DNA of 43,968 bases, taken from a virus. Taxonomy: Duplodnaviria > Heunggongvirae > Uroviricota > Caudoviricetes. Positions 83-37,090 of this stretch are shown piece by piece; positions within the stretch are counted from its first letter, which is position 1; the number at the start of each line of letters is the position of its first letter. Under the pieces are notes generated by a model. That model did not search any database and was not told the DNA's origin. It saw only the letters and a list, made by a program, of their open reading frames with translations. Location: IMG/VR virus record IMGVR_UViG_3300045988_181214, one strand, 5' to 3'. The position numbers and the translations under genes were made by a program.

Positions 83-158
83 CGCGGCGTGGAGCAGTTG
101 GTAGCTCGCCAGGCTCATAACCTGGAGGTCGCATGTTCGAGTCTTGCCGCCGCAACCA
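83..158 (+). tRNA. tRNA-Met (anticodon CAU), initiator (fMet) type
   Basis: Cloverleaf readable by eye: acceptor CGCGGCG/CGCCGCA with unpaired C1:A72, D arm GAGC-AGTTGGTA-GCTC, anticodon arm CCAGG-CTCATAA-CCTGG (CAT at 116-118), T loop TTCGAGT, encoded CCA. Confidence 0.85.
140..156 (+). repeat. attL core (direct repeat shared with attR)
   Basis: AGTCTTGCCGCCGCAAC, identical to 43408-43424; covers T-arm and acceptor 3' strand of the tRNA. Confidence 0.75.
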
Positions 159-6400: not shown

Positions 6401-7774
6401 GAATCGCTTCTTGGCTTTGTCTAGTTCTGCCTGTACCGTTGTATTCTGGGTATTGAACTCATTGATGACACTGGTACCGTCGGCATACGACTTGGTGGCG
6501 ATGTCTTGCGCCTCTTTCACTTGGTCGAGGTGTGTAGCCACGGCGGAGAGAACGCCCACGGCACGGGTGCCGTTAAGCTGCATCTCCTCAAACATCGGTG
6601 CCATCTCGGCGAAACCTCCCTTTGACTTCATCGCTTGCATGAACTTCATCAAGCCCTCATTGGCGTTGGTCTTCATCAGGTTGGAGAACTCCTTGACCTG
6701 CATGCCCGCTATCTTGGCGAACTTGGCTGGCTCTTGGTACATCTTGGTGATGAGCTGTGAGAAGACGGTGGCGGAAGTCGCCTCCTCTTGCATGTTTTGG
6801 TCGAGGGCAGAGGCGAGACCCATCAGCTGTGCCTGGGTCATGCCGGCCTGGATGCCGACACCTGAGAGGTCGGCGGTGAAATCGACGATGTAGCCAGCGT
6901 TTGCAGATGAGCTTTGTGCCAGCTCATTGACGGCGGAACCTGTGGCGAGCATCGCACCACGAAGGCCTTTGGTCTTATCCTCACCAAACATCTGGGCGAG
7001 CTTGCCGATTTTATCGACCGCCCCCTTGCCGAGGTCATCGCCGAGGGTGACATTGATTTTGTCGGCACCATCAACGAACTCCTCGATCATCTCTTTGCTG
7101 GTGATGCCGAGGCGACCGGCAGAGCCAGCCAGCTCGTTGAGCTGCTCACGAGCTGTGCGGGTATCCATGCGCTTGAAGTCCTCGTTCATCTGATGAACCT
7201 GTTCGTCGGTCTGACCGGTGTATTTGCGCACGTCTGCCATCGACTCCTCCATGTCGGCATAGGCTTGGGCTGCAGCTCTCAAAGTAAGAGTGAGTGTGGT
7301 GAGACTGCCCAGTATCTGGGTGAAGGCACCCCAGTTTTTGTTAAGACCATCCCACATTCTAGAGAACAAACTTCTGGAAGCTTTACCTTCGTCGTTGATG
7401 TGCTGCATCTCTGCTCGCACTTGCTTTAATTGCTTTTGCAGTTTTTTCCATTCGTCTGAGTTGCGCTTGATGGCACCGCTTTTCAACTCTCTGTTGAGAG
7501 CCTTGGCGACTAGTTGCAGCTCCTTGTATGATGCAGAAGAAAGATTGTTGAGAACTTGGTTAACCTTCTCTTGGCTAGTCATGTATGCTTTTGTCTCAGC
7601 CTTTAATCTCTTTATCTGTCGTTCGAGGGCTGTTGTTGACTCGCCCTTTGCATAAGCCTCGTCTCTGGCTTTTTGCACTTCTTTCAGCTTGTTTTGCAAT
7701 TCGTTGAGTTTATCCTTAGCCTCTTTGGTGTCAAGAATAACTCTGCTAACATGGGTATCTGTATTTGTTGCCAT
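3428..7774 (-). CDS. Tail tape measure protein
   Basis: 1448-aa ORF; long Lys/Glu/Gln-rich coiled-coil N-terminal half, central hydrophobic helical block, Ala/Gly-rich C-terminal region. Confidence 0.8.
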   Translation of the reverse strand: MATNTDTHVSRVILDTKEAKDKLNELQNKLKEVQKARDEAYAKGESTTALERQIKRLKAETKAYMTSQEKVNQVLNNLSSASYKELQLVAKALNRELKSGAIKRNSDEWKKLQKQLKQVRAEMQHINDEGKASRSLFSRMWDGLNKNWGAFTQILGSLTTLTLTLRAAAQAYADMEESMADVRKYTGQTDEQVHQMNEDFKRMDTRTAREQLNELAGSAGRLGITSKEMIEEFVDGADKINVTLGDDLGKGAVDKIGKLAQMFGEDKTKGLRGAMLATGSAVNELAQSSSANAGYIVDFTADLSGVGIQAGMTQAQLMGLASALDQNMQEEATSATVFSQLITKMYQEPAKFAKIAGMQVKEFSNLMKTNANEGLMKFMQAMKSKGGFAEMAPMFEEMQLNGTRAVGVLSAVATHLDQVKEAQDIATKSYADGTSVINEFNTQNTTVQAELDKAKKRFQDLTIELGEKLIPAMKYGITSFSLTIKVMSTLITFTVTYAKQIAVLSTAIAVCTALWYKETIAIKIKTAAVQYASAVDKAYTATSTLLRAALVALQATWAYLTKGIQGYIVVMRAARLASLTNPWAALATVITVVGVAAYGAYKAITSYNEAMRNNTQEAKNNRAVAEAQASLAKKVSDATLDERNKVDMLNKVIHSNAYTVDERKQAIANMIKLVPEYHASISKEGKLYNDNQIAIQNYIKELENAAMAEAIYERKVEINKKKLELKQKESRIRYSLKAVDAERKAHPKQYESNAVADGWTGQLIEQNEALKSNEKQKQVHTQRLQANLSLQKQVNAEENFYNQQLEKNVNLQKQYNKTVKKNLLNNSATTETHTTPSSGHTMTEKERKAAEKEKKKREAAARKAEAKRKADMKKELDDAKKANQAEELDAKTLYATGQIRLAEYNEKMKNIKEQGLQARLDILKKYGEAESEEFKRLNAEKENIAADYEKKQTADLEALETERQKKEMKLNADYYNKDSNLYHNEDAVNEALFLSYQDYLNKKQALYLSSSDEYAQIEKERELTQQQRKYDLQKQHDEQLLQLRQEYGKLGNEEQMQLDLQGLEAIYKAGLIREEEYQRTKMGIANKYASYKPTADEQRKEDANTALDTAKKMTKGNGDSNNAMGSDNLATIAGGAIAAIQQQKMVNDNLKNLRDEDKISEQQYQDAKKQMNKETYQEIASIAGAAFSSINTMMGAASAYSQACSDLEVAKIEKNYDKQISAAGNNSAKKKRLEAKRDKEVAAAKSKANKKAMKIEIAQAIASTAMAAINAYSSAAAIPVVGHILGPIAAGLATAAGMLQIATIKKQHQAEAAGYYEGGFTGPGNYKKEAGVVHAGEFVANHNAVNNPQLLPALQLIDMAQRNNTVASLTAQDVSRAMGTGSAAVVAPVVNVSGGDTEQMGASLDSVHTTIDRLNEQLNAGIKSYVVITGPDGFDRQWSQYQKMKSNK

Positions 7775-7858: not shown

Positions 7859-8200
7859 TTACTTGGTTATCTCTTGCTCTTTTTTAAAGAACTCGTATGC
7901 AAGATTGTTTGCATCCCAAACAAGATATTTCTTGTTGGTGTTTCTGAGTGTCTGTTTATCACCTGTTATGGAGTTTGCTATCGTGACGCAGAAGAATCTG
8001 CCTCGCTTTACGATTTCGGTTGCCGTATTGTTTGGCGATGCCAGTCTTATAGGCTCGTCAAAATTCTCATCAAAAGTATCAAACAATGGTTCGGAAGCCA
8101 CTGTGGCTGGGCAAGAACTATTGCCAAGCTTGTCGAGACCTTTGAGGAGTGCAACTGTTATAATCGCTAGTATCCAGCATCCAAATATAGTCGTAATCAT
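7859..8200 (-). CDS. Small membrane/secreted protein (hypothetical)
   Basis: 113-aa ORF from first ATG (track ORF 7859-8398 begins at an alternative start); N-terminal hydrophobic helix MITTIFGCWILAIITVALL; promoter motif 30 nt upstream. Confidence 0.5.
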   Translation of the reverse strand: MITTIFGCWILAIITVALLKGLDKLGNSSCPATVASEPLFDTFDENFDEPIRLASPNNTATEIVKRGRFFCVTIANSITGDKQTLRNTNKKYLVWDANNLAYEFFKKEQEITK

Positions 8201-8229
8201 AATTTGTAAGTTTATTATTATCTTTGTTG

Positions 8230-8237
8230 CAAATTTA
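8230..8237 (-). promoter_or_regulatory. -7 promoter element (TAaaTTTG)
   Basis: Minus-strand TAAATTTGCAAC ~30 nt upstream of ATG at 8200. Confidence 0.35.
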
Positions 8238-8422
8238 ATAATAATATTTGGAATATGCAAGTATTTTGTGTTAAATCTTTGATTTGTTTTGCGGTATGGT
8301 GGAAAAATATTATATTTGCAGTGGCAATTTAATTTTAGAAAGTATGAATAAAGATTTTGCTTTAATATTGGTAAACATAATATGCGCCTTAACGGCATTT
8401 GTTTGTATGATAATCACTATTG

Positions 8423-8779
8423 TTATTTCATTAGTGAGATTATAATAGTAATACACATAGATGCGATTGTAATAATCGTGCAAATGATATTGATATATTC
8501 TTTGTATTCTTTCAGAAGTGTCAGTCTCTCCTGTCTTCTCTTCTGTTTGTTATAGCCTTTCTTGGCAGCATTCTCCCCTTGTGGTGTCAGCTTATAATAA
8601 GCTTCTCCCCACTCATAAACAAGTCCCTCGTCTTGAAGTGATTGTAGAACATCGTATGGCTCAATGTCATATCCATACGTATCATTTATAGCACTGTGTA
8701 CATCGTCTTTGTTAGGACTACCTTCTAAGAACTGGCTTAAAATGAAATCTGCGATTTCTATTTGCTTTTTAGTCATCAT
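8423..8779 (-). CDS. Hypothetical protein with C-terminal transmembrane anchor
   Basis: 118 aa from tandem ATGs (track ORF starts at GTG 8863); C-terminal INIICTIITIASMCITIIISL hydrophobic helix. Confidence 0.5.
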   Translation of the reverse strand: MMTKKQIEIADFILSQFLEGSPNKDDVHSAINDTYGYDIEPYDVLQSLQDEGLVYEWGEAYYKLTPQGENAAKKGYNKQKRRQERLTLLKEYKEYINIICTIITIASMCITIIISLMK

Positions 8780-10784: not shown

Positions 10785-12359
10785 TCACGTGAATTTATAG
10801 AACTTCTTTTTGAATTTATTGTGAAGCTCTGCGACCACGGTGGAGAAGGGTAGCTCATCACGACAGAAGTCGTTGAGGGCTTGGTCTATCAAGATCTTGG
10901 AGCCTGTATAGAGGTAGTGCTCCAGAGGTTGCCATACCTCGGTGCCGTCTGGCTCCAGGTGGTCGATGATGCGATAGCGTAGGGAGAGGCGCTTCTTGGG
11001 CACCTCTTTGGTGACCATGTGGGTGGAGCCGTCCGGGGCGGTCTCCTCTTGCTGGATGGTCTCCTTCTCTATCACCGAGTCATCGACCTTGTAGTCTATC
11101 ACTTGAACGAGGAACTTGTTCTCGTCCTGACCCTCACGGCAGATGATGTCCTCGATGGACTGCTGCTGTGATTTCTCCATACCGTCAAAAGGCACGCGCG
11201 CACGGCGAGCCTTGACGAGTTTACCGAATCTTTCCATACCGATTTTCTTATATAAGTTTTTAGAGTTTGCGTGGATGCCCAGACCTAGGCGAGAGGCTGC
11301 CTTGAGCTGTATCTGGCGGTCTGTGAAGCCCGCCTTGCGTAAGTTGGCGATCTGTCTGCAGAGGTCGTGCTTGAACCGCTTGCGCAACAGGGCGTGGTCG
11401 GCGTAGATGATCTGACCGCATAAGTCGATGCCATCGCAGGTGCGGTGGATACCCCAAGACTTATTGATGGATAGGTGCCAGTCACGGGCGAGGTGCATCA
11501 CGGCAAGCTCTGCCATCAGCCTGAGGAACACCTTATCCTCGTGGAGGATGTAGATGTTGTCCATGAAGCGGTAATAATGGCGAAGACCTTGGCGGCAGAA
11601 GCGCTCGAACCTATCGTTGAGCGACTTCACTCCCCCGCATAGCAGTTGAGCTTGCTGCTGAGTGCGACAGGTAACGAGCATGTCGCTCACGTAGCGAGCC
11701 TGCCAGTAACGGAACTTGTCGGTGTCTTGGAGAATGTCGAAGCATCGGAGTGCCAGGTAATCGAAGCGGGCGAGGAAGAGCTGACCCAAGAGTTGGGCGA
11801 GCTTGACGCCGAGCACGATGCCTGGATTGAAGCTATCGACCACCTCGTCGATGAAGGCGAGGAGCTTGCGGTCTTTGATCTTGCGGCGATATTCACTTTT
11901 GAGAAGAGCGTGGTCTATGCTCTGAAAATAATGGTGAATATCCATGGGCAAGCAGTAGAAGGTATCTTGCTGTGGCGAGTTGAAGATGTCTCGCTTGACA
12001 AGATTATAGAAATAATGGGTGCCCTTGCCCTTGGAACCAGCCGGACTGTGGCTGTAGAGTGTCTTGCGAAGGTTATCCTCTACAGGTTGCAGGGCAGCGT
12101 GCTGGATGACGTGGTCGATAACGGGCAGCTTGTTGACTTGGCGATGTTTTGGATAGTCGATATCTTTGGCGACATAGGCTGAGGTATGCCAAGTTTGTTG
12201 GGTGTAAGCATCGAGCATGCGTCCGATGTTATGGTCTAGGTTTGCCTCGAATTTTTGGACCGCACGGCGAGACATCTTTTGTCGGGCGTAGTCATAGAAT
12301 GCCCGACGAAAGTTGTCTAGTGTCTCGACCTGTAGCGATATGTTGCCAAACCTTTTCAT
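10785..12359 (-). CDS. Reverse transcriptase (DGR-type), catalytic motif non-canonical
   Basis: 524 aa from first ATG (track ORF starts at GTG 12428); RT motif 2 SPAGSKGKGTHY, motif A LPMDIHHYFQSIDH, motif B-like GIVLGVKLAQLLGQLFLARFD; sits 208 bp downstream of the template repeat. Confidence 0.8.
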   Translation of the reverse strand: MKRFGNISLQVETLDNFRRAFYDYARQKMSRRAVQKFEANLDHNIGRMLDAYTQQTWHTSAYVAKDIDYPKHRQVNKLPVIDHVIQHAALQPVEDNLRKTLYSHSPAGSKGKGTHYFYNLVKRDIFNSPQQDTFYCLPMDIHHYFQSIDHALLKSEYRRKIKDRKLLAFIDEVVDSFNPGIVLGVKLAQLLGQLFLARFDYLALRCFDILQDTDKFRYWQARYVSDMLVTCRTQQQAQLLCGGVKSLNDRFERFCRQGLRHYYRFMDNIYILHEDKVFLRLMAELAVMHLARDWHLSINKSWGIHRTCDGIDLCGQIIYADHALLRKRFKHDLCRQIANLRKAGFTDRQIQLKAASRLGLGIHANSKNLYKKIGMERFGKLVKARRARVPFDGMEKSQQQSIEDIICREGQDENKFLVQVIDYKVDDSVIEKETIQQEETAPDGSTHMVTKEVPKKRLSLRYRIIDHLEPDGTEVWQPLEHYLYTGSKILIDQALNDFCRDELPFSTVVAELHNKFKKKFYKFT

Positions 12360-12567
12360 AAGCGGTGTAATGTCTGTGTTGAACGGTGTATAAACTGTGT
12401 ATAGTCTGAATCGTCTGCTTTTGTACACTTGATAACCTTCGACCGGATGACCGTGTTGTCATCATCTACCAGCTGTCTTATTAATGTGTATGTATCGCCA
12501 TGGGGCGAGGATTGACCCTGTAATCTCGAAGTGGGAGCAAACGACCCACGAAGAGATATGTCTGTAA

Positions 12568-12927: not shown

Positions 12928-14400
12928 TTAGGCCGCCTCGTAATACACGGGTTCAACGGACCACTCGGATGCTGCTTCGCAGAGGGCGGCGCCGCAGTTC
13001 ACATAGGCATTCGAGACAGCATTGTTCACGTCGAGCGTAGAAAGACCGCATTGACCACCATCGTAAGCGCTAGCACCACGAAGGCAGACACGAAAACCGG
13101 ATGTAGCACCAGACGTATTCCAGAAATAGCTAGTCCAGTAGGTTGACTCGGATGCGCCCGTAGCGGTCGGGAAGTTCTCTAGATGCTCCATCGAGAGCGT
13201 CTTGATATAGCCTTCGCCCTTGGTCGGCGAGGTGCTGTAAGCCACCATGCCATCGGTGGAACCTATCGTCCACGTGCCGTAGATGGACGGTGCCACGAGA
13301 TGGGTCACGGAAGTGTCCTCGTTGCAACGCACCTGCTCGTCATCCATGTGTCGCCACAATAAGCCGAAGCCATTTTTGTAGCCGAAGAAGGATGGTATCT
13401 TGGCGGTATAGACCACGGTGCCATCGTCTTTTTTGACCTCGTAGCTCGCCTCGCCGCAAGCGTCGCCAAGCTCGATGCCAGCCGACATCGGCACGACAGG
13501 GCGATAGCCGTTGTAACCACCCCAATCAGGCATCTGTGTCACGCCAGCGCCGAGACCACCCTGGTAGAGACCGTTGGCATCTTTTTGGCTGTTGACGGCA
13601 TCCTGGTCGTAGTGGGTGCCGAAGATGACCCCGAAGAGCACGGAGATGGCAGAGGTGTGGCGCATGGTGGTGCAGAGCCAGCCTGTGCCGTTTTTGCGGG
13701 CAGCAGCACGCCAGTATTCGGTAGTCTGGTTGGTGGCAGCCTTGCCCAGCATGGTGCGGTTGGTGTTATCTAACGTGGAGTCGTTGTTGCCGCCTCGGTA
13801 GTTTGTGCCCTCGTTGATGTAGCTCACCAGCTTGCCTGTGCTGCGCTCTAGCGTGGCGAAGCCAGCGGCGGAGATGCTGCCCACAGGTATCTTGTAATTG
13901 TACTCGCCTGGTATCGGCGTAGGGCTGACCATCTCGTAATGGAGTCTGCCCACGGTCTTGATGACCATGTACCACTCCTTGCCCCAGCCCCACTGGTAGT
14001 GCCCCTCTGAGCCATCGAGCTTGGCTGTCTCGCCGGTGGCATACTTGTGGTGGTCTTTGGAGTCGAGCTTGCGACGGGAGTGGTCATTCTTGACCAGATA
14101 ACAGCCCAGACCCAGCTCCGTTGGTAGGGTCTGCAGTAACTCTAGCGAGCCCACATAAGTGGCGGCTTTAGGGGTTGCATTGTCGAGGTTCCACACTCGA
14201 CCACACCAAGGATGCTGTCCCATTTGGACGGCGCTTTTGAGCGACATCTGCTCAGACCTGCCGGATTTTTTGTCGAAGACCTCGACAATCTTGTCAGTGG
14301 CGCTCATGTCTGACTGTGGGAGGTCGTCAACCTGTTGACCTCCATCGAAAGCGGCTATGATAGCCTTGAGCTTACTCTCTTCTTCTGATGTTAATGCCAT
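12928..14400 (-). CDS. DGR target protein: tail-fibre / receptor-binding protein with C-terminal variable region
   Basis: 490 aa from ATG (track ORF extends to 14448); VR occupies the last ~40 codons; lies within the tail-fibre gene block. Confidence 0.75.
   Translation of the reverse strand: MALTSEEESKLKAIIAAFDGGQQVDDLPQSDMSATDKIVEVFDKKSGRSEQMSLKSAVQMGQHPWCGRVWNLDNATPKAATYVGSLELLQTLPTELGLGCYLVKNDHSRRKLDSKDHHKYATGETAKLDGSEGHYQWGWGKEWYMVIKTVGRLHYEMVSPTPIPGEYNYKIPVGSISAAGFATLERSTGKLVSYINEGTNYRGGNNDSTLDNTNRTMLGKAATNQTTEYWRAAARKNGTGWLCTTMRHTSAISVLFGVIFGTHYDQDAVNSQKDANGLYQGGLGAGVTQMPDWGGYNGYRPVVPMSAGIELGDACGEASYEVKKDDGTVVYTAKIPSFFGYKNGFGLLWRHMDDEQVRCNEDTSVTHLVAPSIYGTWTIGSTDGMVAYSTSPTKGEGYIKTLSMEHLENFPTATGASESTYWTSYFWNTSGATSGFRVCLRGASAYDGGQCGLSTLDVNNAVSNAYVNCGAALCEAASEWSVEPVYYEAA
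12979..13100 (-). repeat. DGR variable repeat (VR) at the 3' end of the target gene
   Basis: Encodes the C-terminal ...GFRVCLRGASAYDGGQCGLSTLDVNNAVSNAYVNCGAALC of the target; matches the TR except at template-adenine positions; GC-rich 3' end GCGGCGCCGCCC (IMH-like). Confidence 0.85.
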
Positions 14401-14422
14401 AATAAAAATTATATTTAATCGA

Positions 14423-15187
14423 TTAAACAATGCGTAATTTATCACCAACTTTTCTAAGCTTGCCCGATGCCGACAGGCGAAGGCGAGGCTGGCGCACGGT
14501 GATGCTGACCTCTTGCCAGAGCGGTGTGTTGGCGGTGGGGATGACCCAGAACTTGGTGGTGCCCTCGCCCTTGATGATGAGGTTGCCGCTTGGGTCTGCC
14601 ACGAGCGAGTCGCCCTCGGCTCGCTGGAAGAGCACGCTCTGAGGGAGGTAGCTCGGCAGGATCTGCACGGCGATGCGCAGAGCCACCTTGTTGCGTAGGC
14701 TTATCTCGGGGAGATAGGTCAGGTTCATGCGAGCTGGCGCGATGAAGCCTGTGGTTATCTGAGCGGCGAGACCATCCATCTGCGCTATCTTGGCATCGGC
14801 TCGCTTGGATGCCGCGTCAGCCTCTGCAGCCTTGGTCTCTGCCAAGGCTGCCTGTGATGCTGCAGCCTCGCCCTGCTCGCCAGCCGCCTTGGCTGCGCTC
14901 TGGGCGAGGTTAGCCGCCTTGTTGGCATCGTCGGCCGCACCCTGCGCTCTGACGGTCGGTGTCTTGTCGAGCCACAAGCGCCACTTGGCGTTGGTATCTG
15001 AAGGAGTCGTCGTGTTGCCATCCTCTAGGGAGGCGAAGACTCCTGACGATGTGTGAACGATGTCGCCCTCGTCGTAGCCCTTGACGGTCTGGCCATCCTC
15101 ATCTTGATAGGAGTAGCCCGACTGCCAGGTGCCCTGGTCGGTGAAGGCGACATTGCCCACGATAATGATGTTTGTGTTATCTGCCAT
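14423..15187 (-). CDS. Tail fibre-associated protein (Ala/Gln-rich coiled region)
   Basis: 254-aa ORF, ATG start; central AAKAAGEQGEAAASQAALAETKAAEADAASKRADAKIA repeat-like segment. Confidence 0.5.
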   Translation of the reverse strand: MADNTNIIIVGNVAFTDQGTWQSGYSYQDEDGQTVKGYDEGDIVHTSSGVFASLEDGNTTTPSDTNAKWRLWLDKTPTVRAQGAADDANKAANLAQSAAKAAGEQGEAAASQAALAETKAAEADAASKRADAKIAQMDGLAAQITTGFIAPARMNLTYLPEISLRNKVALRIAVQILPSYLPQSVLFQRAEGDSLVADPSGNLIIKGEGTTKFWVIPTANTPLWQEVSITVRQPRLRLSASGKLRKVGDKLRIV

Positions 15188-25984: not shown

Positions 25985-26250
25985 GCCTCACCTCCTTTCG
26001 CCTCCAGTGCTATGTTGATGGTCTTGAAGAGCTTGCTCATGTGGTCGAAGTTGTTGAGCATGAGGAGCACTTTGTCGGCACCGCCGAGGTCTTCGACACA
26101 GTTGGTCACCACCTCGTCTGAGATAAGCACCTTTTTGACTTGCTCAAGGTACTCGATGAAGTAGCTGAGCTGGTTGACATCCATCATTTCTACGAGCGCA
26201 TTCCAGACCTCTGCTGTCATGTGCATATTTGTTGCGTTGTTTGTGTTCAT
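25981..26250 (-). CDS. Hypothetical small protein
   Basis: 89-aa ORF; ATGA overlaps on both sides. Confidence 0.45.
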   Translation of the reverse strand: MNTNNATNMHMTAEVWNALVEMMDVNQLSYFIEYLEQVKKVLISDEVVTNCVEDLGGADKVLLMLNNFDHMSKLFKTINIALEAKGGEA

Positions 26251-26612
26251 GCTACGACTCCTCCCATCAGATAACCACCAAAGAAAACCACTGCCATGAA
26301 GGCTGCGAAGCCTAGTGTGGCCTTGACCACCTCGCCGTAGGTCACGCTCTCGTCGCAGAGTGCGGTGAAGGTCTCGCTCTCGGTCTTGGCGAGCTTCTTG
26401 ATTTCACACTTGAGGGTATTGATACCCTCCTCTACGCTGATGCCTGCAGGTCTCACCTGCGCATCACTAATTAAAATTGAATTCTGCATAATTGCCATCT
26501 TATAACCATTATAGACCGATCTTGATGTATAAATACAATGGTGGCGGTCACATTCACCGTTGGTTATAAGATGGTAGCTTTCCCAGCGAAGGTCAAGTAT
26601 CTTACGGATCAT
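26247..26612 (-). CDS. Hypothetical membrane protein
   Basis: 121-aa ORF; C-terminal hydrophobic helix LGFAAFMAVVFFGGYLMGGVVA. Confidence 0.45.
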   Translation of the reverse strand: MIRKILDLRWESYHLITNGECDRHHCIYTSRSVYNGYKMAIMQNSILISDAQVRPAGISVEEGINTLKCEIKKLAKTESETFTALCDESVTYGEVVKATLGFAAFMAVVFFGGYLMGGVVA

Positions 26613-26751
26613 GCAACCGCCATATTGAAAAGACCTTTTTCCCGCTGCCGGGAAAATGATACTTTATAGGCATAAAAAAAGCCCACGGCGTGAAGCCTAG
26701 GCGAAACAGTCGCCATCGCTGAGTAGATTACTACTATCTTATAACCGATGG

Positions 26752-26759
26752 CAAAAGTA
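26752..26759 (-). promoter_or_regulatory. -7 promoter element (TActTTTG) with long structured leader
   Basis: Minus-strand GTACTTTTGCC ~140 nt upstream of ATG 26612; leader contains hairpin TTTTCCCG-ctgc-CGGGAAAA (26645-26668). Confidence 0.3.
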
Positions 26760-26851
26760 CGAAGAATAATTGGAACCGCCAAAAAAAAAGCGAGAAATTT
26801 TGAAATAAATGACTTTTTTATGTTTTAGAGCATAAAACAAGGGGGTGAGGA

Positions 26852-26885
26852 ACGAAAAAGCCCCGGATGCTCACGCACCCGAGGC
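26852..26885 (-). terminator. Intrinsic terminator after the 26892-27284 gene
   Basis: Stem GCCTCGG / CCGGGGC (one G-U), then on the minus strand TTTTTCGTT. Confidence 0.45.
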
Positions 26886-26891
26886 TGACAG

Positions 26892-27284
26892 TTATTTTTG
26901 GAAATAAACTTTTAAAGGGATTGAATTCTCCACATTGCCAATTTTGAAAGAGAACTGATAGTTGCCCTCTGCAGGGAACTGGAGGTCGGAGAACTCAAAG
27001 ATGAAGTTGCTGAAGAGAAACTCATCTGAAGGGTGTGGCTCAATCTTGGAATTGATGGGCTGGCCAAGAATCATCTTGCCAGTGCTCATCTCTGTAACCT
27101 CTGCCGAGAACTCTTGCTGAAGTTTGCTTTCCTCGCTGTTCATCTTAACTCTCGCTACCATGAAGAGGTTGTTCTTAGGCAGCGGTGCTTTTCTTACCAC
27201 ATAGTGGTCAAAAGTGCCCACGATGGTAAGTTTGCCGTCATTATCTTGTGCAAAGTCACACAATGCAAGAATATCTATGTTCAT
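26892..27284 (-). CDS. Hypothetical protein (AT-rich cargo cassette, gene 3)
   Basis: 130-aa ORF, ATGA overlap with the upstream gene. Confidence 0.5.
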   Translation of the reverse strand: MNIDILALCDFAQDNDGKLTIVGTFDHYVVRKAPLPKNNLFMVARVKMNSEESKLQQEFSAEVTEMSTGKMILGQPINSKIEPHPSDEFLFSNFIFEFSDLQFPAEGNYQFSFKIGNVENSIPLKVYFQK

Positions 27285-27721
27285 TTTATATGTCCTTTAA
27301 TGTTAGACTCGATAGCCGAGTGTTTGAAAAGTTTTTTATAATTGTCGAATGAATATTTGAGTTTGCTCACCGTGCGCTTGTTTGTGCTCACTAGGTTGGC
27401 TCCATGTCTGCCAGAGATGCCTTCCTTGGTATTGAACTTCAGAGAATTTCTTTTGGAGTCAACCCAAAGCCTGATGGCATCGCCTTGTATCTTGTCACCC
27501 ACATTGCCATGGACGTTGAGATCTTCTCGTATTTTCTTGTCCTCTTCGTTGAGCTCAAGAGCTTCGGTGATTTCTACGGAACTATTTCGGTCTAGTTCGT
27601 ATAATGTCATCTTTTTGCCCGTGATAGGTTCCTCTTTGAGTCCCTTCCACTCAGCCCTTCTGGCAATGACATCAGCTTTTTTGCCCTCTATGATTTCACC
27701 TTCTTTGATATATATAGCCAT
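27281..27721 (-). CDS. Hypothetical protein (AT-rich cargo cassette, gene 2)
   Basis: 146-aa ORF, Lys/Glu-rich. Confidence 0.5.
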   Translation of the reverse strand: MAIYIKEGEIIEGKKADVIARRAEWKGLKEEPITGKKMTLYELDRNSSVEITEALELNEEDKKIREDLNVHGNVGDKIQGDAIRLWVDSKRNSLKFNTKEGISGRHGANLVSTNKRTVSKLKYSFDNYKKLFKHSAIESNIKGHIK

Positions 27722-28149
27722 TATTGGATACTTTTTTGCATTGATTTTTCACTGAAAGAGAATACCTCAGCCATATCATCAGGCGAGGTGATGCTCATGA
27801 GCGATGGGCTGACCTCAAGAGCCACCTCAATGTCTTCAATGGAAGCATCTTTATCTTGTTTGATGATGTACTTATCCTCATGCTCTTCAATCTCTTTATC
27901 AAACTCTTCTTCGGTAATATTGCCGTCAAGCATTTCGCAATATAGTTTGAAGTAGTTGCGCTCACGTGTGCGGTTGTTAACGGCACGAGTCATCAACTCC
28001 TTGAGTCTGTCGGCAGTACTAATGTTGAAAAAGTTAGCCTTATTGGTAACACCAGCGAATGCAACCTTGCCAGTACCTTTGTCTTGTATAGCCACAACAG
28101 GGCTGCCATCAGTTTGGTATGTTGTATATATAGTCGTTGTATTGCTCAT
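27721..28149 (-). CDS. Hypothetical protein (AT-rich cargo cassette, gene 1)
   Basis: 142-aa ORF, ATG start 31 nt downstream of promoter motif. Confidence 0.5.
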   Translation of the reverse strand: MSNTTTIYTTYQTDGSPVVAIQDKGTGKVAFAGVTNKANFFNISTADRLKELMTRAVNNRTRERNYFKLYCEMLDGNITEEEFDKEIEEHEDKYIIKQDKDASIEDIEVALEVSPSLMSITSPDDMAEVFSFSEKSMQKSIQ

Positions 28150-28179
28150 AATTCACATCCTGTTTATATTAACACGGTG

Positions 28180-28187
28180 CAAAGATA
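28180..28187 (-). promoter_or_regulatory. -7 promoter element (TAtcTTTG)
   Basis: Minus-strand CGTATCTTTGCACC upstream of ATG 28149. Confidence 0.45.
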
Positions 28188-28320
28188 CGGTTATTTTTTG
28201 TAAATCGCAAATTTAATGATAAATTTAACAACAAAAATTGCAATAAAGATTGGAAAATGGTATATAAAGAATGCTCGACCGCTTTTTGGCTCTTGCCAGA
28301 CGCTTTCGCCGCAGGCGAAA

Positions 28321-28357
28321 ATTTTTGGAAAATGAGGGGGAAGGTTTTAGCCTTCCC
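28321..28357 (-). terminator. Intrinsic terminator after the RadC-like gene
   Basis: Perfect 8-bp stem GGGGAAGG / CCTTCCCC with 6-nt loop, followed on the minus strand by CTCATTTTCC. Confidence 0.5.
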
Positions 28358-28377
28358 CTTACCTTATTATATATATA

Positions 28378-29061
28378 TTATAGCTTTCCTTTGTCGTGGT
28401 AGCTGTAGAAGCCATCCTCAGCCAAGATGATATGGTCCATCAAGAAAAGTCTCATCACCTCGCACGCCTTGGCTATCTTCTGCGTGAGCATATCGTCCGC
28501 CTTGCTCGGCTGCGTGCTGTTCGATGGGTGGTTGTGTGCCACGGCGATGATGGTTGCATTGTTGAGCACGGCTTCTTTCATTATCAGTCGAACGTCCACC
28601 GCTGTCTCGGTGATGCCTCCCTCGCTGAGCTTGGTGCACTTTATCAGCCTAAAGTTTTGGTTCATCAGCACTACCCAAAAGCCCTCTGTCTCATTGCAGC
28701 CTATCATTGGGCGAAGATAGTTGTAGAGTGCCAGGCTGCTGCCTAGGTCGGTGTTTCTCGCTACCTTTTCCATTTGGTAGCGTCTGCCTAGCTCGATGGC
28801 TGCCTGTAGGGCTATCGCCTTGCAGTCTCCAATTCCTGGTACCACTTCCAGGTCTTCTATTCTCGCCTTGCCGATGTTGCGAAGCGAGTTGCCCATGATG
28901 TTATAAATCTGTCGTGCCTGCTCTTGGCTGTCCTTGGTACCTGCCCCTCTGTTGATTACCAAAGAAATCAAGTCAACGTTGGTAAGGGTGTCGAAACCTT
29001 GGTTATAGGCTCTGTACTGCGGTCTCTCCTCCATACAAAGATTGTTATAATTTTGTCTCAT
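28378..29061 (-). CDS. radC: RadC-like JAB/MPN-domain protein
   Basis: 227 aa; N-terminal helix-hairpin-helix-like LEVVPGIGDCKAIALQAAIELG; JAB metal-binding motif AVAHNHPSNSTQPSKADD. Confidence 0.75.
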   Translation of the reverse strand: MRQNYNNLCMEERPQYRAYNQGFDTLTNVDLISLVINRGAGTKDSQEQARQIYNIMGNSLRNIGKARIEDLEVVPGIGDCKAIALQAAIELGRRYQMEKVARNTDLGSSLALYNYLRPMIGCNETEGFWVVLMNQNFRLIKCTKLSEGGITETAVDVRLIMKEAVLNNATIIAVAHNHPSNSTQPSKADDMLTQKIAKACEVMRLFLMDHIILAEDGFYSYHDKGKL

Positions 29062-29076
29062 ATCTTTTGTTATTTG

Positions 29077-29601
29077 TTAGTTATACATTCTCTTTGTTCT
29101 CGCTAGGAACATCGCTCCCATCACTTGTGCGCCACATTCGGCTAGCTCGTTGGCGAACTCTCGGGCGGTCGCTCCGCTCGTCACCACGTCGTCGAAGATG
29201 ATGACTTTCTTTCCGCTGAAGTACTCTCTATCGAGTGCCACTCTGTAGTCGAAGCTCTCACACACTCTGTCTGTGCTGAAGTGCTTGGCTGTGCGCTCTC
29301 CATAGATGGAAATGTGCTCGTTTCCGTTCTGTACCTTTGCGCCTTGGCTCACCTTTTGGGCGAAGCGAGAAAAGCGCTTGGTGTACTTCTTTGAGTTGGC
29401 TGCTGGAGCGCAAACCATCACGAAGTCGCTGGCTTTGTCGCCATAGGTGTTGACGAAAGAGCTGACCACCATATCGGCAGCTGCGTCTGTCGCCCACTGC
29501 TTTCCATCCTTGAAGGCAAAGATGAAGTTTCTCACTTGCTCTGCTTGTGCTGAGCGGTCGAAACGCTTGGAGCTGTACTCGTAATAATTGAAAGTTTTCA
29601 T
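29077..29601 (-). CDS. ComF-like phosphoribosyltransferase-domain protein
   Basis: 174 aa; PRTase signature KKVIIFDDVVTSGATAREFA near the C-terminus; no N-terminal Cys-rich zinc finger. Confidence 0.65.
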   Translation of the reverse strand: MKTFNYYEYSSKRFDRSAQAEQVRNFIFAFKDGKQWATDAAADMVVSSFVNTYGDKASDFVMVCAPAANSKKYTKRFSRFAQKVSQGAKVQNGNEHISIYGERTAKHFSTDRVCESFDYRVALDREYFSGKKVIIFDDVVTSGATAREFANELAECGAQVMGAMFLARTKRMYN

Positions 29602-29870
29602 ACGCTTAAAATTTTTATTCTAGCCAGAGGGAGGAAGGAGCTTTTTTATTTGAACTCGTCTTTGCCTGCCCGTCTGAGAGTTTTTTTTATTCTGTCCGTC
29701 GGTCGTTTTTGTCGCTTTTTACGGTGCGATGCAGACGAGCGGAGAAGAGGTATGAAAGCCAAGGAATTTTGCAAAAAGTTTATGGAAAACCGTCATCTCT
29801 GATTGCGGAAGGCTGCCGAAAAGTTTTTGGAAAATAGATTTATCGGTACTTGGTGCATGCCGTCCGCCGT

Positions 29871-29878
29871 ACCTTTGC
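29871..29878 (+). promoter_or_regulatory. Plus-strand -7 promoter element (TAccTTTG) inside an ORF-poor island
   Basis: gTACCTTTGCAC, same 12-mer as the tRNA promoter; points into 29880-30499, which has no convincing ORF. Confidence 0.35.
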
Positions 29879-30198
29879 ACCCGAAAAAGAGATAATGACC
29901 GATGGATAACCGATAAAGGGAAAAGCTCTCGGACAGGAAAAGCGGGCAAAGAAAAGGCTCTGCCTTACCTTGGTGGTTAAGCCTTAGCGACGTTTGAGCG
30001 CCATCACGGTCACTACCGCTTGAAAATTCGCAAATTTTAACCATAGCGTATGAAATGAAAGATGGAAAATTTGCGTCATCAAAAACACCATGTTTTTCAG
30101 ACTTTAGGAGGAAAAACATACCTTGGAGCGATGAAATCGCAGCATTTGGCATGCTTCGACCCCGAGGTTGAAGATGCCGAATGTGTCGTTTTGCGACA

Positions 30199-30240
30199 GG
30201 TTTTCCACACCCACGGATTGGAAAACCCCGATTTTATCGT
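30199..30240 (+). terminator. Plus-strand hairpin plus U-tract (candidate terminator of a small RNA)
   Basis: Perfect 8-bp stem GGTTTTCC / GGAAAACC with 13-nt loop, followed by CCGATTTTATCG. Confidence 0.3.
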
Positions 30241-30499
30241 GGTTTTAGGGATTCAAAGGGAAAATAATTCCCCTTTGTCGGCGATAGCACCCCCCACCGC
30301 CCTACGCCCGAGCGCGCCTTCCGCCCCCTTGGAAAAGACGGAATATGTAAAAGACCGTTAACGTTTTTGTAGGAATGTAAAAAGCCAAAAGGCACGAAAA
30401 AAGGGAACACGCTTCGCAGCGCACTCCCCTTATCGGCGGTCAAGCAAGAATGCCAGCCACCTAACTTATATAAGAATCGTACTATCTAAAGAAATCAAA

Positions 30500-32101
30500 C
30501 TATAGCATGGAACCCGTGGCGATGTAGCCATCAGCCTGAGGGTATTTCTCCATGCCAATCATGAGCGTGTCGTAGGCATCGGAGCCATCGGTGCGAGCCT
30601 CCAACTTATCCTCCTCGGTCTCAGCCAGCTTCTCGCCTCGCTTATCCTTCTTGCCGTTGTAGACCCCGGCCAGGCGGATGGAGATGAGCAGGTCTTCGTT
30701 GTTCTCGCTGTTGATCATCGAGCGATGCTCAGCCTTGCCGAGGAACATGCGGTTGAGCAGAAGCATCTTTTCGAGATGTCCCATCGGGTTGCCCAGATAG
30801 ACCTCGTTGACATACCAGCCATGGTCGGTGAGGTAGTCGGTGATGAAGGTATGGAAGTCATCGTTCATCAGGGCGTAGTTGTTGCCCACGAAGGTGGAGT
30901 CGTAGTAGAAGTTGACCTCTTTGCACCGATGGTACTCATAGTACTGCATGAACTTGTCGAGCAGGGCTGGCAGCTTCTCCTCATACTTCACGAAGATGCT
31001 CTTGAGGCAGCGTGCCTCGCCCCGCAGGTTGTCTTGTCCGACGGCTATCCAGTTGATGAGGGCGTTGGCATCGAAGGCGATGCAGAGCGGACGGTCGGGG
31101 TCAACGTCGGCATCCATTCTGGAATCTACATGCTTGAGCTTGTCGATGTCGTAGCCCAAGCCATCGAGGTAGGCGAGGTTGGGCGCCGTGTATAGGTTGG
31201 CATCCCTGAGGTTGGAGTAGAAGCCATCGAGCGAGATGGAAGGTCGCTTGCACATGATGGAGGTCTGGAAGGTGAGGGCAGGGAGGTCTCGCTTCATCTG
31301 CTTGATGAACTCCATGCCGAGCACCTCGATGTTATAGACCGATGAGTACTCTTTATAGAAGAGTGCCTTGGAGCGCAGTTGCGCCAGGAGCTGACCAATC
31401 TCTCGGAGTCGGCGCTGGGCATAGCCTGAGACATGGCCCGAGGTCTTGATGCGGTTGCGTATGTCATACTCCTCTACCACGAGCGAGGCGATGGCGTCGA
31501 TGAGCAGCTGGTCGCAGTCTTTCTTGTAGTTGAGGAACCAGGAGCCCTTCTTGGTCACGGGCATATCAGAGGTGATGAGCATGCCATGGTGGTAGTAGTG
31601 CTGGCCGAAGAGGTTGACGTTGCCTCGATTGGCAGGGAAGGTCTCGTCTTTGAGCTGTTCGAAGTTGATGAACTTCGCCTCGTCGATGTCGAGGTAGTCG
31701 AGCGAGAGGGAGTTGGAGGTACCCTTGCGGTCTTGCGAGATGATGGTACCGATGGAGCCGTTATAGAAAGAGATGGTGTTCTCCCAGTTGCTGGGCGGTA
31801 TGACCGGGTCGGGCCATCCCAGTTTTTTGGGAGGCTTGACCCCGATGAGATAATGCTTGCCCCGGTGGAAGCCCCATCGCTCCCAGTGCTGAAGCATCGA
31901 CGGTATGGTGTTGGTGAGGCATCGCTTGGTGTTGGCGGATACGAAGCCGCCGTTGCTGCCAGGCATGCGCTGCATGTTGCGCAGGTTGAAGGTGGCGTGG
32001 AGAATGCTCTTGCCGATGCCTCGACCGCCCACGACCACGTTGTCGCGGGCGGAGATGAGGTTGACCTCCATCTGGGCTGGGTTGAGATATTGATCTATCA
32101 T
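30500..32101 (-). CDS. terL: Terminase large subunit
   Basis: 533 aa; N-terminal Walker A VVVGGRGIGKS, Walker B-like LDYLDIDEA, Asp-rich C-terminal nuclease-like half. Confidence 0.8.
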   Translation of the reverse strand: MIDQYLNPAQMEVNLISARDNVVVGGRGIGKSILHATFNLRNMQRMPGSNGGFVSANTKRCLTNTIPSMLQHWERWGFHRGKHYLIGVKPPKKLGWPDPVIPPSNWENTISFYNGSIGTIISQDRKGTSNSLSLDYLDIDEAKFINFEQLKDETFPANRGNVNLFGQHYYHHGMLITSDMPVTKKGSWFLNYKKDCDQLLIDAIASLVVEEYDIRNRIKTSGHVSGYAQRRLREIGQLLAQLRSKALFYKEYSSVYNIEVLGMEFIKQMKRDLPALTFQTSIMCKRPSISLDGFYSNLRDANLYTAPNLAYLDGLGYDIDKLKHVDSRMDADVDPDRPLCIAFDANALINWIAVGQDNLRGEARCLKSIFVKYEEKLPALLDKFMQYYEYHRCKEVNFYYDSTFVGNNYALMNDDFHTFITDYLTDHGWYVNEVYLGNPMGHLEKMLLLNRMFLGKAEHRSMINSENNEDLLISIRLAGVYNGKKDKRGEKLAETEEDKLEARTDGSDAYDTLMIGMEKYPQADGYIATGSML

Positions 32102-32727
32102 AGTGCTTTGTCCTCCTTGACTTCTTCTGTAGGTGTATATTCCAAGAGCTGTTCGTCGTAGTCCTCGGCCTCGATCTTGACGAGATCCATGGAGTTGTCG
32201 GTGTATTTCTTGACGAGCTTCTTGATGGTCTGCATCACGTTAGGGATGCGCTTGAGACCCAAGTGTCGTGGGTCGGTGGTAGGGATGAAGACCTGAGGCT
32301 GAATCTGGTCGTAGCCGTTGTCGGTAGGATCCTCTTTGTCGAGCAGGTGATATTTGCCGTATGCAGCTGCGGCGGCAGCCATGGCTCGGGCATCGCCCAT
32401 GGAGTCGGCCTTGTCGTAGGTGCGCTGTATCATCTGGTCGAAGCGATAGCGGGCGAAGTCTTTTGACACTTTTTGCAGGTTGCCCAATATGAGCTTGATG
32501 AGGTGCAGGTCGTTGTAAGCCATCATGCGCTGCACCTTGTAGTCGTGCATATCTTTATAGACCAGCTCTTGGTCGCTCTTGCGAGGGTTGATGAGCCACC
32601 AGGCATAGAGGGCACGGATGCGCAAAATGCGGTCGCGCACTGGGGCGGGCACATTTTGCGCATCCATCTCTTCGGGTGTGCGGTCCATCAGTTCGATGAT
32701 GGCATCGATGTTGGCGGGTTCTCTCAT
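32098..32727 (-). CDS. Putative terminase small subunit
   Basis: 209-aa ORF translationally coupled (ATGA) to terL; assignment by position only. Confidence 0.35.
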   Translation of the reverse strand: MREPANIDAIIELMDRTPEEMDAQNVPAPVRDRILRIRALYAWWLINPRKSDQELVYKDMHDYKVQRMMAYNDLHLIKLILGNLQKVSKDFARYRFDQMIQRTYDKADSMGDARAMAAAAAAYGKYHLLDKEDPTDNGYDQIQPQVFIPTTDPRHLGLKRIPNVMQTIKKLVKKYTDNSMDLVKIEAEDYDEQLLEYTPTEEVKEDKAL

Positions 32728-36064: not shown

Positions 36065-37090
36065 TTATGCAAACTGATTTAAAACATCCAACACTTGATC
36101 TGAGCAGAAATCCTCGACCTTGGTGTCATCGACAGCAGTGTGCGTGTCGCCACCAGGCTCTCCCTCCAGATCCTTCACTTTATCCTTCAGGTCATCTCTC
36201 TCCTTTTCGAGATTCTTGACCTTAGTCTCTAACTCCTTCTTCTCGTCCTTGACCTTCTGAAGCTCTGTGTCTTTGTCGGTCACGGCCTTGGAGTCGGCAG
36301 CGATCTTATCCTCCAGTTTCTGCATCTGCTCCTGTGAGATTGTGCAGTTCTTTGCGGAATCTTCTGCCTCAATGCCCTCGATATTGAGGACATTGTTGAT
36401 GTGAGTCCATTTTTTGATCATATTAATAATTTTATTTTGTGATTTATCTTTGCCGAATAATCGGTCGATGATGCTTGGCTTTTTATCATACCAGGAGTTA
36501 ACAACCTCTGGGAGAACAGGAAGGTTGTTGTACTTGATGAAGTCTTGCGTCTGCTCGGTGATGTCGGCAGGCTTGCCATCCATGGCTTCATCGACGAGAC
36601 CCAGTTCGATGCACTCATCGACGGTGTGCCACATCGCTTCGGACATCACCTTGACGATGTCCTCGTGCTTCTTGCCCGAGCGATCGCAGTAAACGTTGGC
36701 GATGATGTTGTCGATTTTCTGCTGGTTCTCTTGCTGTTTTTGAAGTTGCTCGATGAGCGAGCCTATCTGCTCCTCGTTGAGCGCAGACCACACAAACTGC
36801 TCGGTAGAGCACTTGTGTACCAGGAGCAAGCTATATTTGCTCATGCGAATCTTGCTGGCACCCATCGCACAGATGGTGGCAGCAGAGGCAGAGAAGCCCG
36901 CCTGGAAGTCAACGGTCACGTCGCCATGGGACTTGAACATCTGACAGATGGCGAGACCTGCGGAGACCTCGCCACCCAAGGAGTCGATGGCAACATCGAC
37001 GTGCTTATCTTTGTTGGCCTTAAGAACATCGCGAACCATGAGCTTGGTCCACGAGCCAATATATCCTGTGATAGAAATTTGGTACTTCAT
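36065..37090 (-). CDS. ClpP-family prohead protease with C-terminal coiled-coil (scaffold-like) domain
   Basis: IDSLGGEVSAGLAI, catalytic Ser in GFSASAA, His in LVHKC, Asp in GLVDEAM align with ClpP; C-terminal ~100 aa is a Lys/Glu/Asp-rich coiled-coil. Confidence 0.8.
   Translation of the reverse strand: MKYQISITGYIGSWTKLMVRDVLKANKDKHVDVAIDSLGGEVSAGLAICQMFKSHGDVTVDFQAGFSASAATICAMGASKIRMSKYSLLLVHKCSTEQFVWSALNEEQIGSLIEQLQKQQENQQKIDNIIANVYCDRSGKKHEDIVKVMSEAMWHTVDECIELGLVDEAMDGKPADITEQTQDFIKYNNLPVLPEVVNSWYDKKPSIIDRLFGKDKSQNKIINMIKKWTHINNVLNIEGIEAEDSAKNCTISQEQMQKLEDKIAADSKAVTDKDTELQKVKDEKKELETKVKNLEKERDDLKDKVKDLEGEPGGDTHTAVDDTKVEDFCSDQVLDVLNQFA

Follow-up and report, generated by a model that had tools for sequence, protein, structure and literature searches.

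What is a closely spaced pair of small genes doing in a Segatella copri prophage, where it directly follows the gene for the large terminase? The question is raised by positions 28378–29601 of a 43,968 nt stretch of Caudoviricetes DNA, IMG/VR record IMGVR_UViG_3300045988_181214, the whole of which is referred to here as the window. On its minus strand, a gene for a stand-alone phosphoribosyltransferase (PRTase) is followed, after a gap of 15 nt, by a gene for a full-length RadC. From the sequence, the pair had been taken for a moron with a role in interaction with the host rather than a virion function. It is found here to be accessory cargo, its two genes strictly co-inherited and under purifying selection, with RadC taking the place that a DprA or SLOG protein holds beside related PRTases. 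Such an arrangement would be consistent with a module resembling the anti-phage system ShosTA, in which the PRTase would be an effector and RadC its antidote, and this is the explanation tentatively favoured.

The gene pair and its proteins

Both open reading frames (ORFs) are exactly where they had been predicted, at 29601..29077 for the PRTase (174 amino acids) and 29061..28378 for RadC (227 amino acids). The original prediction also gave the pair a downstream terminator of its own, and there is indeed a terminator-like hairpin at 28358..28337, with the sequence GGGGAAGG-CTAAAA-CCTTCCCC, whose stem has 8 pairs, including 6 G-C, with CTCATTTTCC after it. This hairpin and a second one downstream of RadC both lie in the block that is gained or lost with the pair (Table 1).

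RadC matches two Pfam profiles, PF04002 for the RadC-like JAB domain (E 1.2e-35, 122.5 bits against a cut-off of 22.1) and PF20582 for UPF0758_N (E 7.2e-12, 45.7 bits against a cut-off of 27.1). In NCBIfam it is over the cut-off of TIGR00608 (152.9 bits against 133.85) and marginally below that of the housekeeping equivalog PRK00024 (175.5 bits against 180). There is a weak comEA-like helix-hairpin-helix match at residues 38–85, and the protein aligns to the RadC structure PDB 2qlc (E 1.1e-14). Residues 176–190 are HNHPSNSTQPSKADD, and the JAMM motif, which had been described as intact, is complete, with E126, H176-x-H178, S186, and D189 all present and at least 97% conserved among 49 unique phage RadC sequences.

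The PRTase is recognized by the Pfam profile PF00156 (E 4.5e-7, 29.7 bits, exceeding the gathering score of 26.3), and profile search has therefore confirmed the domains of both proteins. The loop that would bind phosphoribosyl pyrophosphate (PRPP), VIIFDDVVTSGATA, is at residues 132–145 and includes D137 and D138, which are invariant in a 30-sequence set and in a 49-sequence set of these PRTases. In the latter, made up of unique sequences, T141, G143, R76, H107, and K31 are near-invariant as well. Besides the PRPP loop, an N-terminal extension particular to the solo PRTase family is conserved (Y9, F30-K31-x-G33). The window protein has just three cysteines, C64, C113, and C155, with none in residues 1–63, which means that the N-terminal four-Cys zinc finger of ComF is absent, as had been supposed. 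Searching 1.84 billion representative proteins found 1017 relatives at E≤1e-3, 339 at 1e-10, and 13 at 1e-30; many of these are solo proteins of ~170–220 amino acids, and many others are proteins of 600–900 amino acids that have the domain at the C terminus.

By fold comparison the PRTase is nearest to ComFC among solved folds, while sequence searches of PDB with the PRTase, both single-sequence and profile, matched the PRPP loop and nothing more. The description of the protein as ComF-like and lacking the zinc finger is therefore right for the fold; by sequence, it belongs to the conflict-system PRTases, its nearest relatives being of this kind and not chromosomal ComFC. Among the PADLOC models, there is a weak match to ShosT (PDLC03962, E 1.6e-9, 36 bits, residues 9–171) and also a match to PsyrT (E 9e-9). 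The ShosT model is matched by 30 of 30 aligned members of the PRTase family, the best at E 1e-15. The PRTase of locus L112, the neighbour of a strong ShosA, scores just 42.7 bits on this model, and a weak ShosT score is therefore normal for the Bacteroidota members of the system.

Resemblance to ComFC would also fit interference with competence, in which the phage ComFC-like protein and RadC would hijack or modulate natural transformation or the handling of single-stranded DNA (ssDNA) in the lysogen, for instance so that the prophage is not lost through transformation. Mobile elements do manipulate competence (PMC12378983), and RadC comes close to the score of its housekeeping equivalog. Yet identity to the nearest fold, the ComFC of Helicobacter pylori (7p0h), is 12% only, the ComFC zinc finger is absent, and the PRTase is far under the NCBIfam comF cut-off (TIGR00201, 31.5 bits against 233.55; GntX, 23.4 against 304). 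The conflict-system affinity of its sequence also speaks against such a role, as does the cassette being prophage cargo and not a competence operon. A requirement for RadC in transformation is not known, and "RadC, a misleading name?" is cited in PMC5512222. Interference with competence would seem quite improbable.

Presence, pairing, and decay

The presence of the pair was scored, with other neighbouring genes, in 72 IMG/VR loci collected by similarity of the terminase. Where the terminase is 92–100% identical, 33 loci have both genes and 22 have neither, 2 further contigs being too short to judge. The pair is absent, then, from 22 of 55 phages with a terminase at least 92% identical (40%), in some of which the flanking genes are contiguous. 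Where the terminase is ~52% identical, both genes are present in 11 loci, and there is none with neither; RadC alone is present in 2, a frameshifted PRTase with an intact RadC in 1, and truncated copies of both in 1. Comparison with the pair-less loci L015 and L034 reveals a clean indel of ~1.78 kb, at ~28254–30030 with limits that are approximate within a few tens of nt, containing a ~430 nt leader, both genes, and the terminator hairpin. In other relatives, HicA and assorted uncharacterised genes occupy the same site after the terminase.

The pair is accessory cargo, and its site, right behind the terminase gene, is a variable one. It had been placed inside the morphogenesis region, and indeed it sits between the large terminase and the downstream structural genes. 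Since it is present or absent at a fixed site among near-identical phages, it behaves as a moron would, and it is not core to the related phages. The role in interaction with the host is one that we infer, and it is sharpened by the ShosT-like clade of the PRTase.

The same pattern of absence bears on whether the pair might serve nucleotide salvage or DNA modification during phage replication, the PRTase making a nucleotide or a modified base that RadC would then process. The PRPP-binding loop is intact, as this would need, and the JAB fold has been argued to be related to nucleotide-acting deaminase folds (PMC5512222). However, 40% of near-identical phages do without the cassette, and no replacement of like function was identified. 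There are no further biosynthetic genes nearby, and none of the equivalog salvage PRTase models among the NCBIfam profiles comes near its cut-off with the cassette PRTase. A part in phage nucleotide metabolism is accordingly regarded as very doubtful.

A census anchored on the PRTase covered 80 IMG/VR loci in which this protein is 37–100% identical, and RadC is immediately downstream in all 80. A scan of a genome collection with an 8-sequence PRTase alignment found RadC directly downstream in 16 of 16 loci with a PRTase of 36% identity or more; these bear the labels Segatella, Prevotella, or Leyella, apart from one bin labelled Oscillibacter. In the more distant P0020, P0027, and P0046, the PRTase is likewise followed by RadC. 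Co-occurrence in other prophages, which had been suggested as a check on the pair, is therefore strict. The spacing between the two genes is mostly -1 to +19 nt. The upstream terminase is 27–100% identical across the PRTase-anchored loci, and phages that differ considerably therefore have the cassette at the same relative position.

The pairing is not due to chance, there being homologous pairs in more than 100 independent contigs and median ratios of nonsynonymous to synonymous substitution rates (dN/dS) of 0.16 for the PRTase and 0.14 for RadC, with 0.06 for the terminase. Both genes are under purifying selection. These ratios and the invariance of the catalytic residues would suggest that both enzymes are kept active.

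Some loci carry decayed versions of the cassette. In L073 and L074 (7715–8332) the PRTase and the leader have been deleted and a RadC of 205 amino acids is retained, and in L078 (~8100–8650) the PRTase is frameshifted and RadC is intact. These three loci, in which RadC persists with a lost or frameshifted PRTase, represent two independent events. In L069 (7677–8469) a deletion truncates both genes; the PRTase is cut just past the FDD motif, and of RadC the C-terminal half is left. No locus with an intact PRTase and an absent or broken RadC was present among those examined.

RadC is replaced by other partners at loci that carry lower-identity solo members of the same PRTase family. A YpsA-type SLOG gene is directly downstream of the PRTase in L103, and beside P0034 in L165–L167, overlapping or abutting the stop codon. 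DprA is adjacent in L112 and L113, with or without a HAD hydrolase, and scores 236 bits on the PADLOC ShosA model. An ArdC-N-type ssDNA-binding anti-restriction protein is encoded directly upstream of the PRTase in L172 and L109, and in L101 the PRTase is alone after the tape-measure gene, with no obvious partner. In a rough neighbour-joining tree, most of the RadC-paired PRTases are in one clade; lineages paired with SLOG and a few others paired with RadC interleave, and the DprA-paired PRTases are more basal. The theme shared by these loci is the coupling of a PRTase to a DNA-binding or DNA-processing protein.

Two other arrangements of PRTase genes were seen. Locus L173 (85–8014) encodes DprA, a 467 amino acid PRTase protein, a HAD hydrolase, and PRTase proteins of 790 and 878 amino acids, an unusually elaborate multi-PRTase island that is ShosTA/PsyrTA-like. 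Locus L170 (3001–6576) has a distant cassette with a PRTase that is 32% identical and a short, JAB-only RadC (193 amino acids), followed by a DUF5053 gene and a SNIPE/T5orf172 nuclease gene.

Possible functions of the pair

ShosT is toxic by way of its PRTase domain; PRPP binding is required, and a mutant in which DD is changed to AA is harmless (PMC11961720, PMC12961424), the residues needed for toxicity being D331/D332 (PMC11961720). ShosA is DprA-like and has ssDNA and RecA as binding partners; it does not bind ShosT but does neutralise it, and the outcome for an infecting phage is abortive (PMC11961720, PMC12961424). A pair of DprA and PRTase genes from a P2 prophage hotspot protects E. 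coli from T7 and lambda (PMC9122126).

The cassette is like ShosTA, a type IV toxin-antitoxin (TA) and anti-phage system, in its two adjacent co-oriented genes, its DD PRPP loop, and the precedent of the prophage hotspot. Its partner gene encodes a DNA-binding protein of the competence toolkit, and its match to the ShosT model is comparable to that of a PRTase beside a bona fide ShosA. It differs from ShosTA in that the partner is RadC, with helix-hairpin-helix and JAB domains, and not DprA or SLOG, and in that the PRTase is a solo domain of 174 amino acids, whereas the crystallised ShosT has an N-terminal pyrophosphatase domain. PsyrTA/RqlHI, a RecQ-like helicase-PRTase fusion with a DprA-like partner, is called to mind by the many longer homologues that have the PRTase domain at the C terminus, but the cassette is without a helicase and has RadC as the partner. 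In common with toxin-antitoxin systems generally, the linkage is tight, and the putative toxin, the PRTase, is never seen without RadC. The RadC/UPF0758 family includes chromosomal RadC, the short YeeS, YkfG, and YfjY of E. coli cryptic prophages, and the RadC of phage WO and of jumbo phages; the cassette RadC is like these in its two domains, intact JAMM motif, and TIGR00608 score, and is set apart from them by its obligate coupling to an upstream PRTase. From the likeness to ShosTA we infer the toxicity of the PRTase, the antidote role of RadC, and a part for the cassette in defence.

The homology of the effector, the replacement of the partner, the architecture of the cassette, and the one-sided decay would all fit an effector/antidote module like ShosTA, with RadC in place of the DprA or SLOG partner, that the prophage carries as a moron to the benefit of the lysogen. 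This is considered a realistic possibility, to be held tentatively. The PRTase would be the effector, binding PRPP via the invariant DD loop as ShosT does, and if unrestrained it would harm DNA or nucleotide metabolism. RadC, as a predicted DNA-binding JAB metalloenzyme, would fill the slot of the DprA-like or SLOG partner (ShosA/PsyrA) of the sister systems and would be the antidote or a sensor. It might reverse or process the product of the PRTase by way of the JAB metal centre, or it might counter the damage at the level of the DNA, like ShosA. In a lysogen that expresses the module, infections by competing phages would be aborted or kept in check.

Regulation of the pair would presumably involve the leader. 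The proximal ~270 nt before the PRTase ATG are conserved in nucleotide sequence across cassettes with PRTases that are 40–52% identical, the conserved blocks being GGCAGCCTTCCG, GGTTTTCC, ATTCCTTG, CGTAAAAAGCGA, CGACCGACG, and AAAAAAAACTCTC. The leader is gained and lost together with both genes in the indel mapping against L015 and L034, and its conserved sequence is also found in L001, L086–L096, L164, L169, and L170. A run of eight A (A8; 29681–29688) is invariant, 77–93 nt ahead of the ATG, and in every lineage examined it is followed by CTCTC and an imperfect hairpin of 15–20 bp; on the opposite strand this is a hairpin followed by T8, which is terminator-like. Further from the gene, there is a weak inverted partial copy of the leader, which nhmmer recovers at E 3.5e-4; in L084, L086, L089, and L096 the E values are between 6e-6 and 7e-4. 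The copy in the window is mirrored by a minus-strand terminator-like hairpin at 29964..29945. The leader is part of the cassette and is probably regulatory.

A structured RNA in the leader is not claimed. Rfam had no match there, either at the gathering threshold or with E relaxed to 5. With 15 sequences, RNAalifold predicted 0 pairs; it also gave -1.95 kcal/mol in the sense orientation and a wobble-rich -15 in the antisense (12 sequences). Manual counting found 64% of positions paired against 61% in shuffles, without convincing covariation. The region of the A8 and hairpin has a sense-strand minimum free energy (MFE) z of about -2, the energies favouring neither strand. A small leader ORF was ruled out, given that a 1 nt indel between close relatives breaks the frame and the spacing of the blocks differs by 1 nt. 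The ORF at 29793–30152 (119 amino acids), which has no family matches, was rejected as a gene.

DarG reverses the action of DarT, and by analogy RadC might remove an adduct made by the PRTase. In its most specific form, the proposal would be that RadC is the enzymatic antidote of a ComFC/ShosT-type PRTase, its JAB domain removing or processing a phosphoribosyl adduct on a DNA-linked or nucleotide target, and that the conserved 270 nt leader with its A8-hairpin is a new cis-regulatory or antisense control of the toxin. As a whole this is speculative and unlikely.

The 5' half of the leader has a wider distribution. It also precedes the YpsA-paired PRTase in L165 and L166 (34–148, nhmmer E ~6e-11), and in L172 (1492–1615, E 5.8e-11) it precedes a gene for 74 amino acids, an ArdC gene (ArdcN and metallopeptidase), and the PRTase. 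Perhaps it serves cargo operons of Bacteroidales mobile elements as a common promoter or operator. That this sequence is common to the ArdC-PRTase operon favours a different function, in counter-defence or establishment, whereby PRTase and RadC made by the phage would act on the incoming genome, to protect or process it, or would disarm the immunity of the host. The proteins would possibly be made late and packaged, or made early after entry, like ArdC-type and "polyvalent protein" effectors.

Several other features of the locus would accord with counter-defence. A sister clade of the PRTase is directly after ArdC-N (and metallopeptidase) genes in L172 and L109. Iyer, Burroughs and Aravind (2017) describe a distinct group of invasive-element PRTases, solo or MuF-fused, and RadC fused to ArdC-N (PMC5512222). 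The cassette shares with these "polyvalent proteins" a solo PRTase and, in RadC, a DNA-binding domain with a metallopeptidase-like JAB, which resembles the architecture of ArdC, but it consists of separate small genes on a prophage and not a fusion on a conjugative element. It is within the head-gene block and co-oriented with it, and a canonical host promoter is absent. Against this, the PRTase relatives that have been characterised experimentally (ShosT, PsyrT, and the P2-hotspot system) are defence toxins and not anti-defence proteins. There is a terminator-like hairpin after the terminase gene and another hairpin inside the leader, and simple read-through from the late genes is therefore not obvious. 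The asymmetric decay is also better suited to the logic of an effector and its antidote. A counter-defence function is possible and deserves to be kept in view, but is thought unlikely.

There are, nevertheless, a number of points that weigh against a ShosTA-like module. The PRTase clade beside ArdC-N anti-restriction-type proteins (L172, L109) points to counter-defence. At 36 bits, the sequence link between the PRTase and ShosT is weak, and the N-terminal pyrophosphatase-like domain of the crystallised ShosT is not present in the 174 amino acids of the PRTase. Against PADLOC, RadC has no match to ShosA or PsyrA, just a weak JAB match (E 0.0057), and we know of no antitoxin role for RadC. One-sided decay is based on just two independent events. 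No canonical Bacteroidetes TAnnTTTG promoter was found ahead of the module, the best candidate being AAAATTTG at 30038–30031, and expression of the cassette in the lysogen is therefore presumptive; the cassette is, moreover, co-oriented with the late genes. Nor is the site supported as a "defence hotspot", since 10 alternative cargo families found there gave one Pfam match, to DUF2335.

Prophage context and significance

The window is an integrated prophage of Segatella (Prevotella) copri, the host being identified by an identical PRTase on a contig from a Segatella copri metagenome-assembled genome (L084). One of its ends is marked by the tRNA-Met beside the tyrosine integrase (Table 1). A megablast search of GenBank phages with 26000–32200 gave no match, and tblastn with the PRTase matched uncultured faecal "Bacteriophage sp." records only, at 29–35% identity; there is therefore no annotated reference phage.

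Table 1. Features of the cassette and of the surrounding prophage, in window coordinates
Feature	Position	Strand	Details
tRNA-Met	83–158		adjoins integrase
Tyrosine integrase	275–1438
Tape-measure protein	3428–7774
Reverse transcriptase of diversity-generating retroelement	10785–12428		PHROG 1423, E 2e-52
RT-17 RNA	12411–12512		Rfam, 59.9 bits
Tail protein	12928–14448
Entire mobile cassette	28254..30030	-	~1.78 kb; presence/absence among near-identical phages
Second hairpin downstream of RadC	28304–28320		pattern scan
Terminator-like hairpin	28337..28358	-	20 nt past RadC stop codon; pattern scan
Full-length RadC	28378..29061	-	227 amino acids; UPF0758_N (helix-hairpin-helix-like) and JAB/MPN+
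Stand-alone PRTase	29077..29601	-	174 amino acids; ComFC-like fold, ShosT/PsyrT-like clade (by sequence), zinc finger-less
Non-coding leader	29602..30030	-	~430 nt; indel mapping against pair-less L015/L034
Invariant A8, CTCTC, and imperfect hairpin	29625..29688	-	A8 at 29681–29688, hairpin at 29625–29676; alignments
Weak inverted partial leader copy	29849..29981	+	leader profile positions 115–254; nhmmer
Large terminase	30500–32101		PHROG 2; 34% identical to annotated Microcystis phage terminases
Head maturation protease	36065–37090

The diversity-generating retroelement (10785–12512) adjoins the tail genes. Right after the terminase, there is a non-coding stretch of ~380–440 nt (30060–30440, minus strand), which every close relative conserves whether or not it has the pair, and which is strongly structured (MFE -133 kcal/mol, z -3.3). 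The first of its hairpins (~30401–30431, with a T run after it) resembles a terminator for the terminase gene, and the remainder could be a non-coding RNA or a packaging-related site.

A second cargo operon is present at 26892–28149 on the minus strand, with genes for 142 amino acids (27721–28149), 146 amino acids (27281–27721), and a DUF6941 protein of 130 amino acids (26892–27284). It has a perfect Bacteroidetes -7 box, TAAATTTG, at 28208–28215 and its own terminator at 26859–26886. This operon varies independently of the pair, being present without it in L015 and L034 and absent alongside it in L010 and L035. In L002–L007 (~11411–12134) a HicA toxin gene and a gene for 135 amino acids, which may be HicB, are directly after the pair, replacing the three-gene operon.

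ShosTA and PsyrTA are already known systems, and what seems new here is the obligate pairing of a PRTase with RadC, of which no description was found in the searchable literature. Solo phage PRTases and phage RadC genes have each been noted earlier (PMC5512222). RadC is among the most widespread bacterial proteins of unknown function, and the catalytic role of ComFC is likewise unresolved. The cassette is small (~1.8 kb), abundant, and naturally variable, and has RadC exactly where the sister systems carry DprA or SLOG. With its obligate coupling, this makes testable the hypothesis that RadC counteracts or completes the reaction of the PRTase.

If the pair is a ShosTA-like module, RadC would be a new class of partner for the PRTase-based ShosTA/PsyrTA anti-phage and toxin-antitoxin systems. 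If RadC is the antidote, the cassette would reveal its biochemical function and would link ComFC, DprA, and RadC, which are co-regulated competence proteins, in one pathway. The pair would also represent a common accessory function among prophages in Segatella copri, a bacterium that is dominant in the human gut and has phages about which little is known. Its main value is as a concrete link between RadC and a ComFC/ShosT-type PRTase, one that is open to test.

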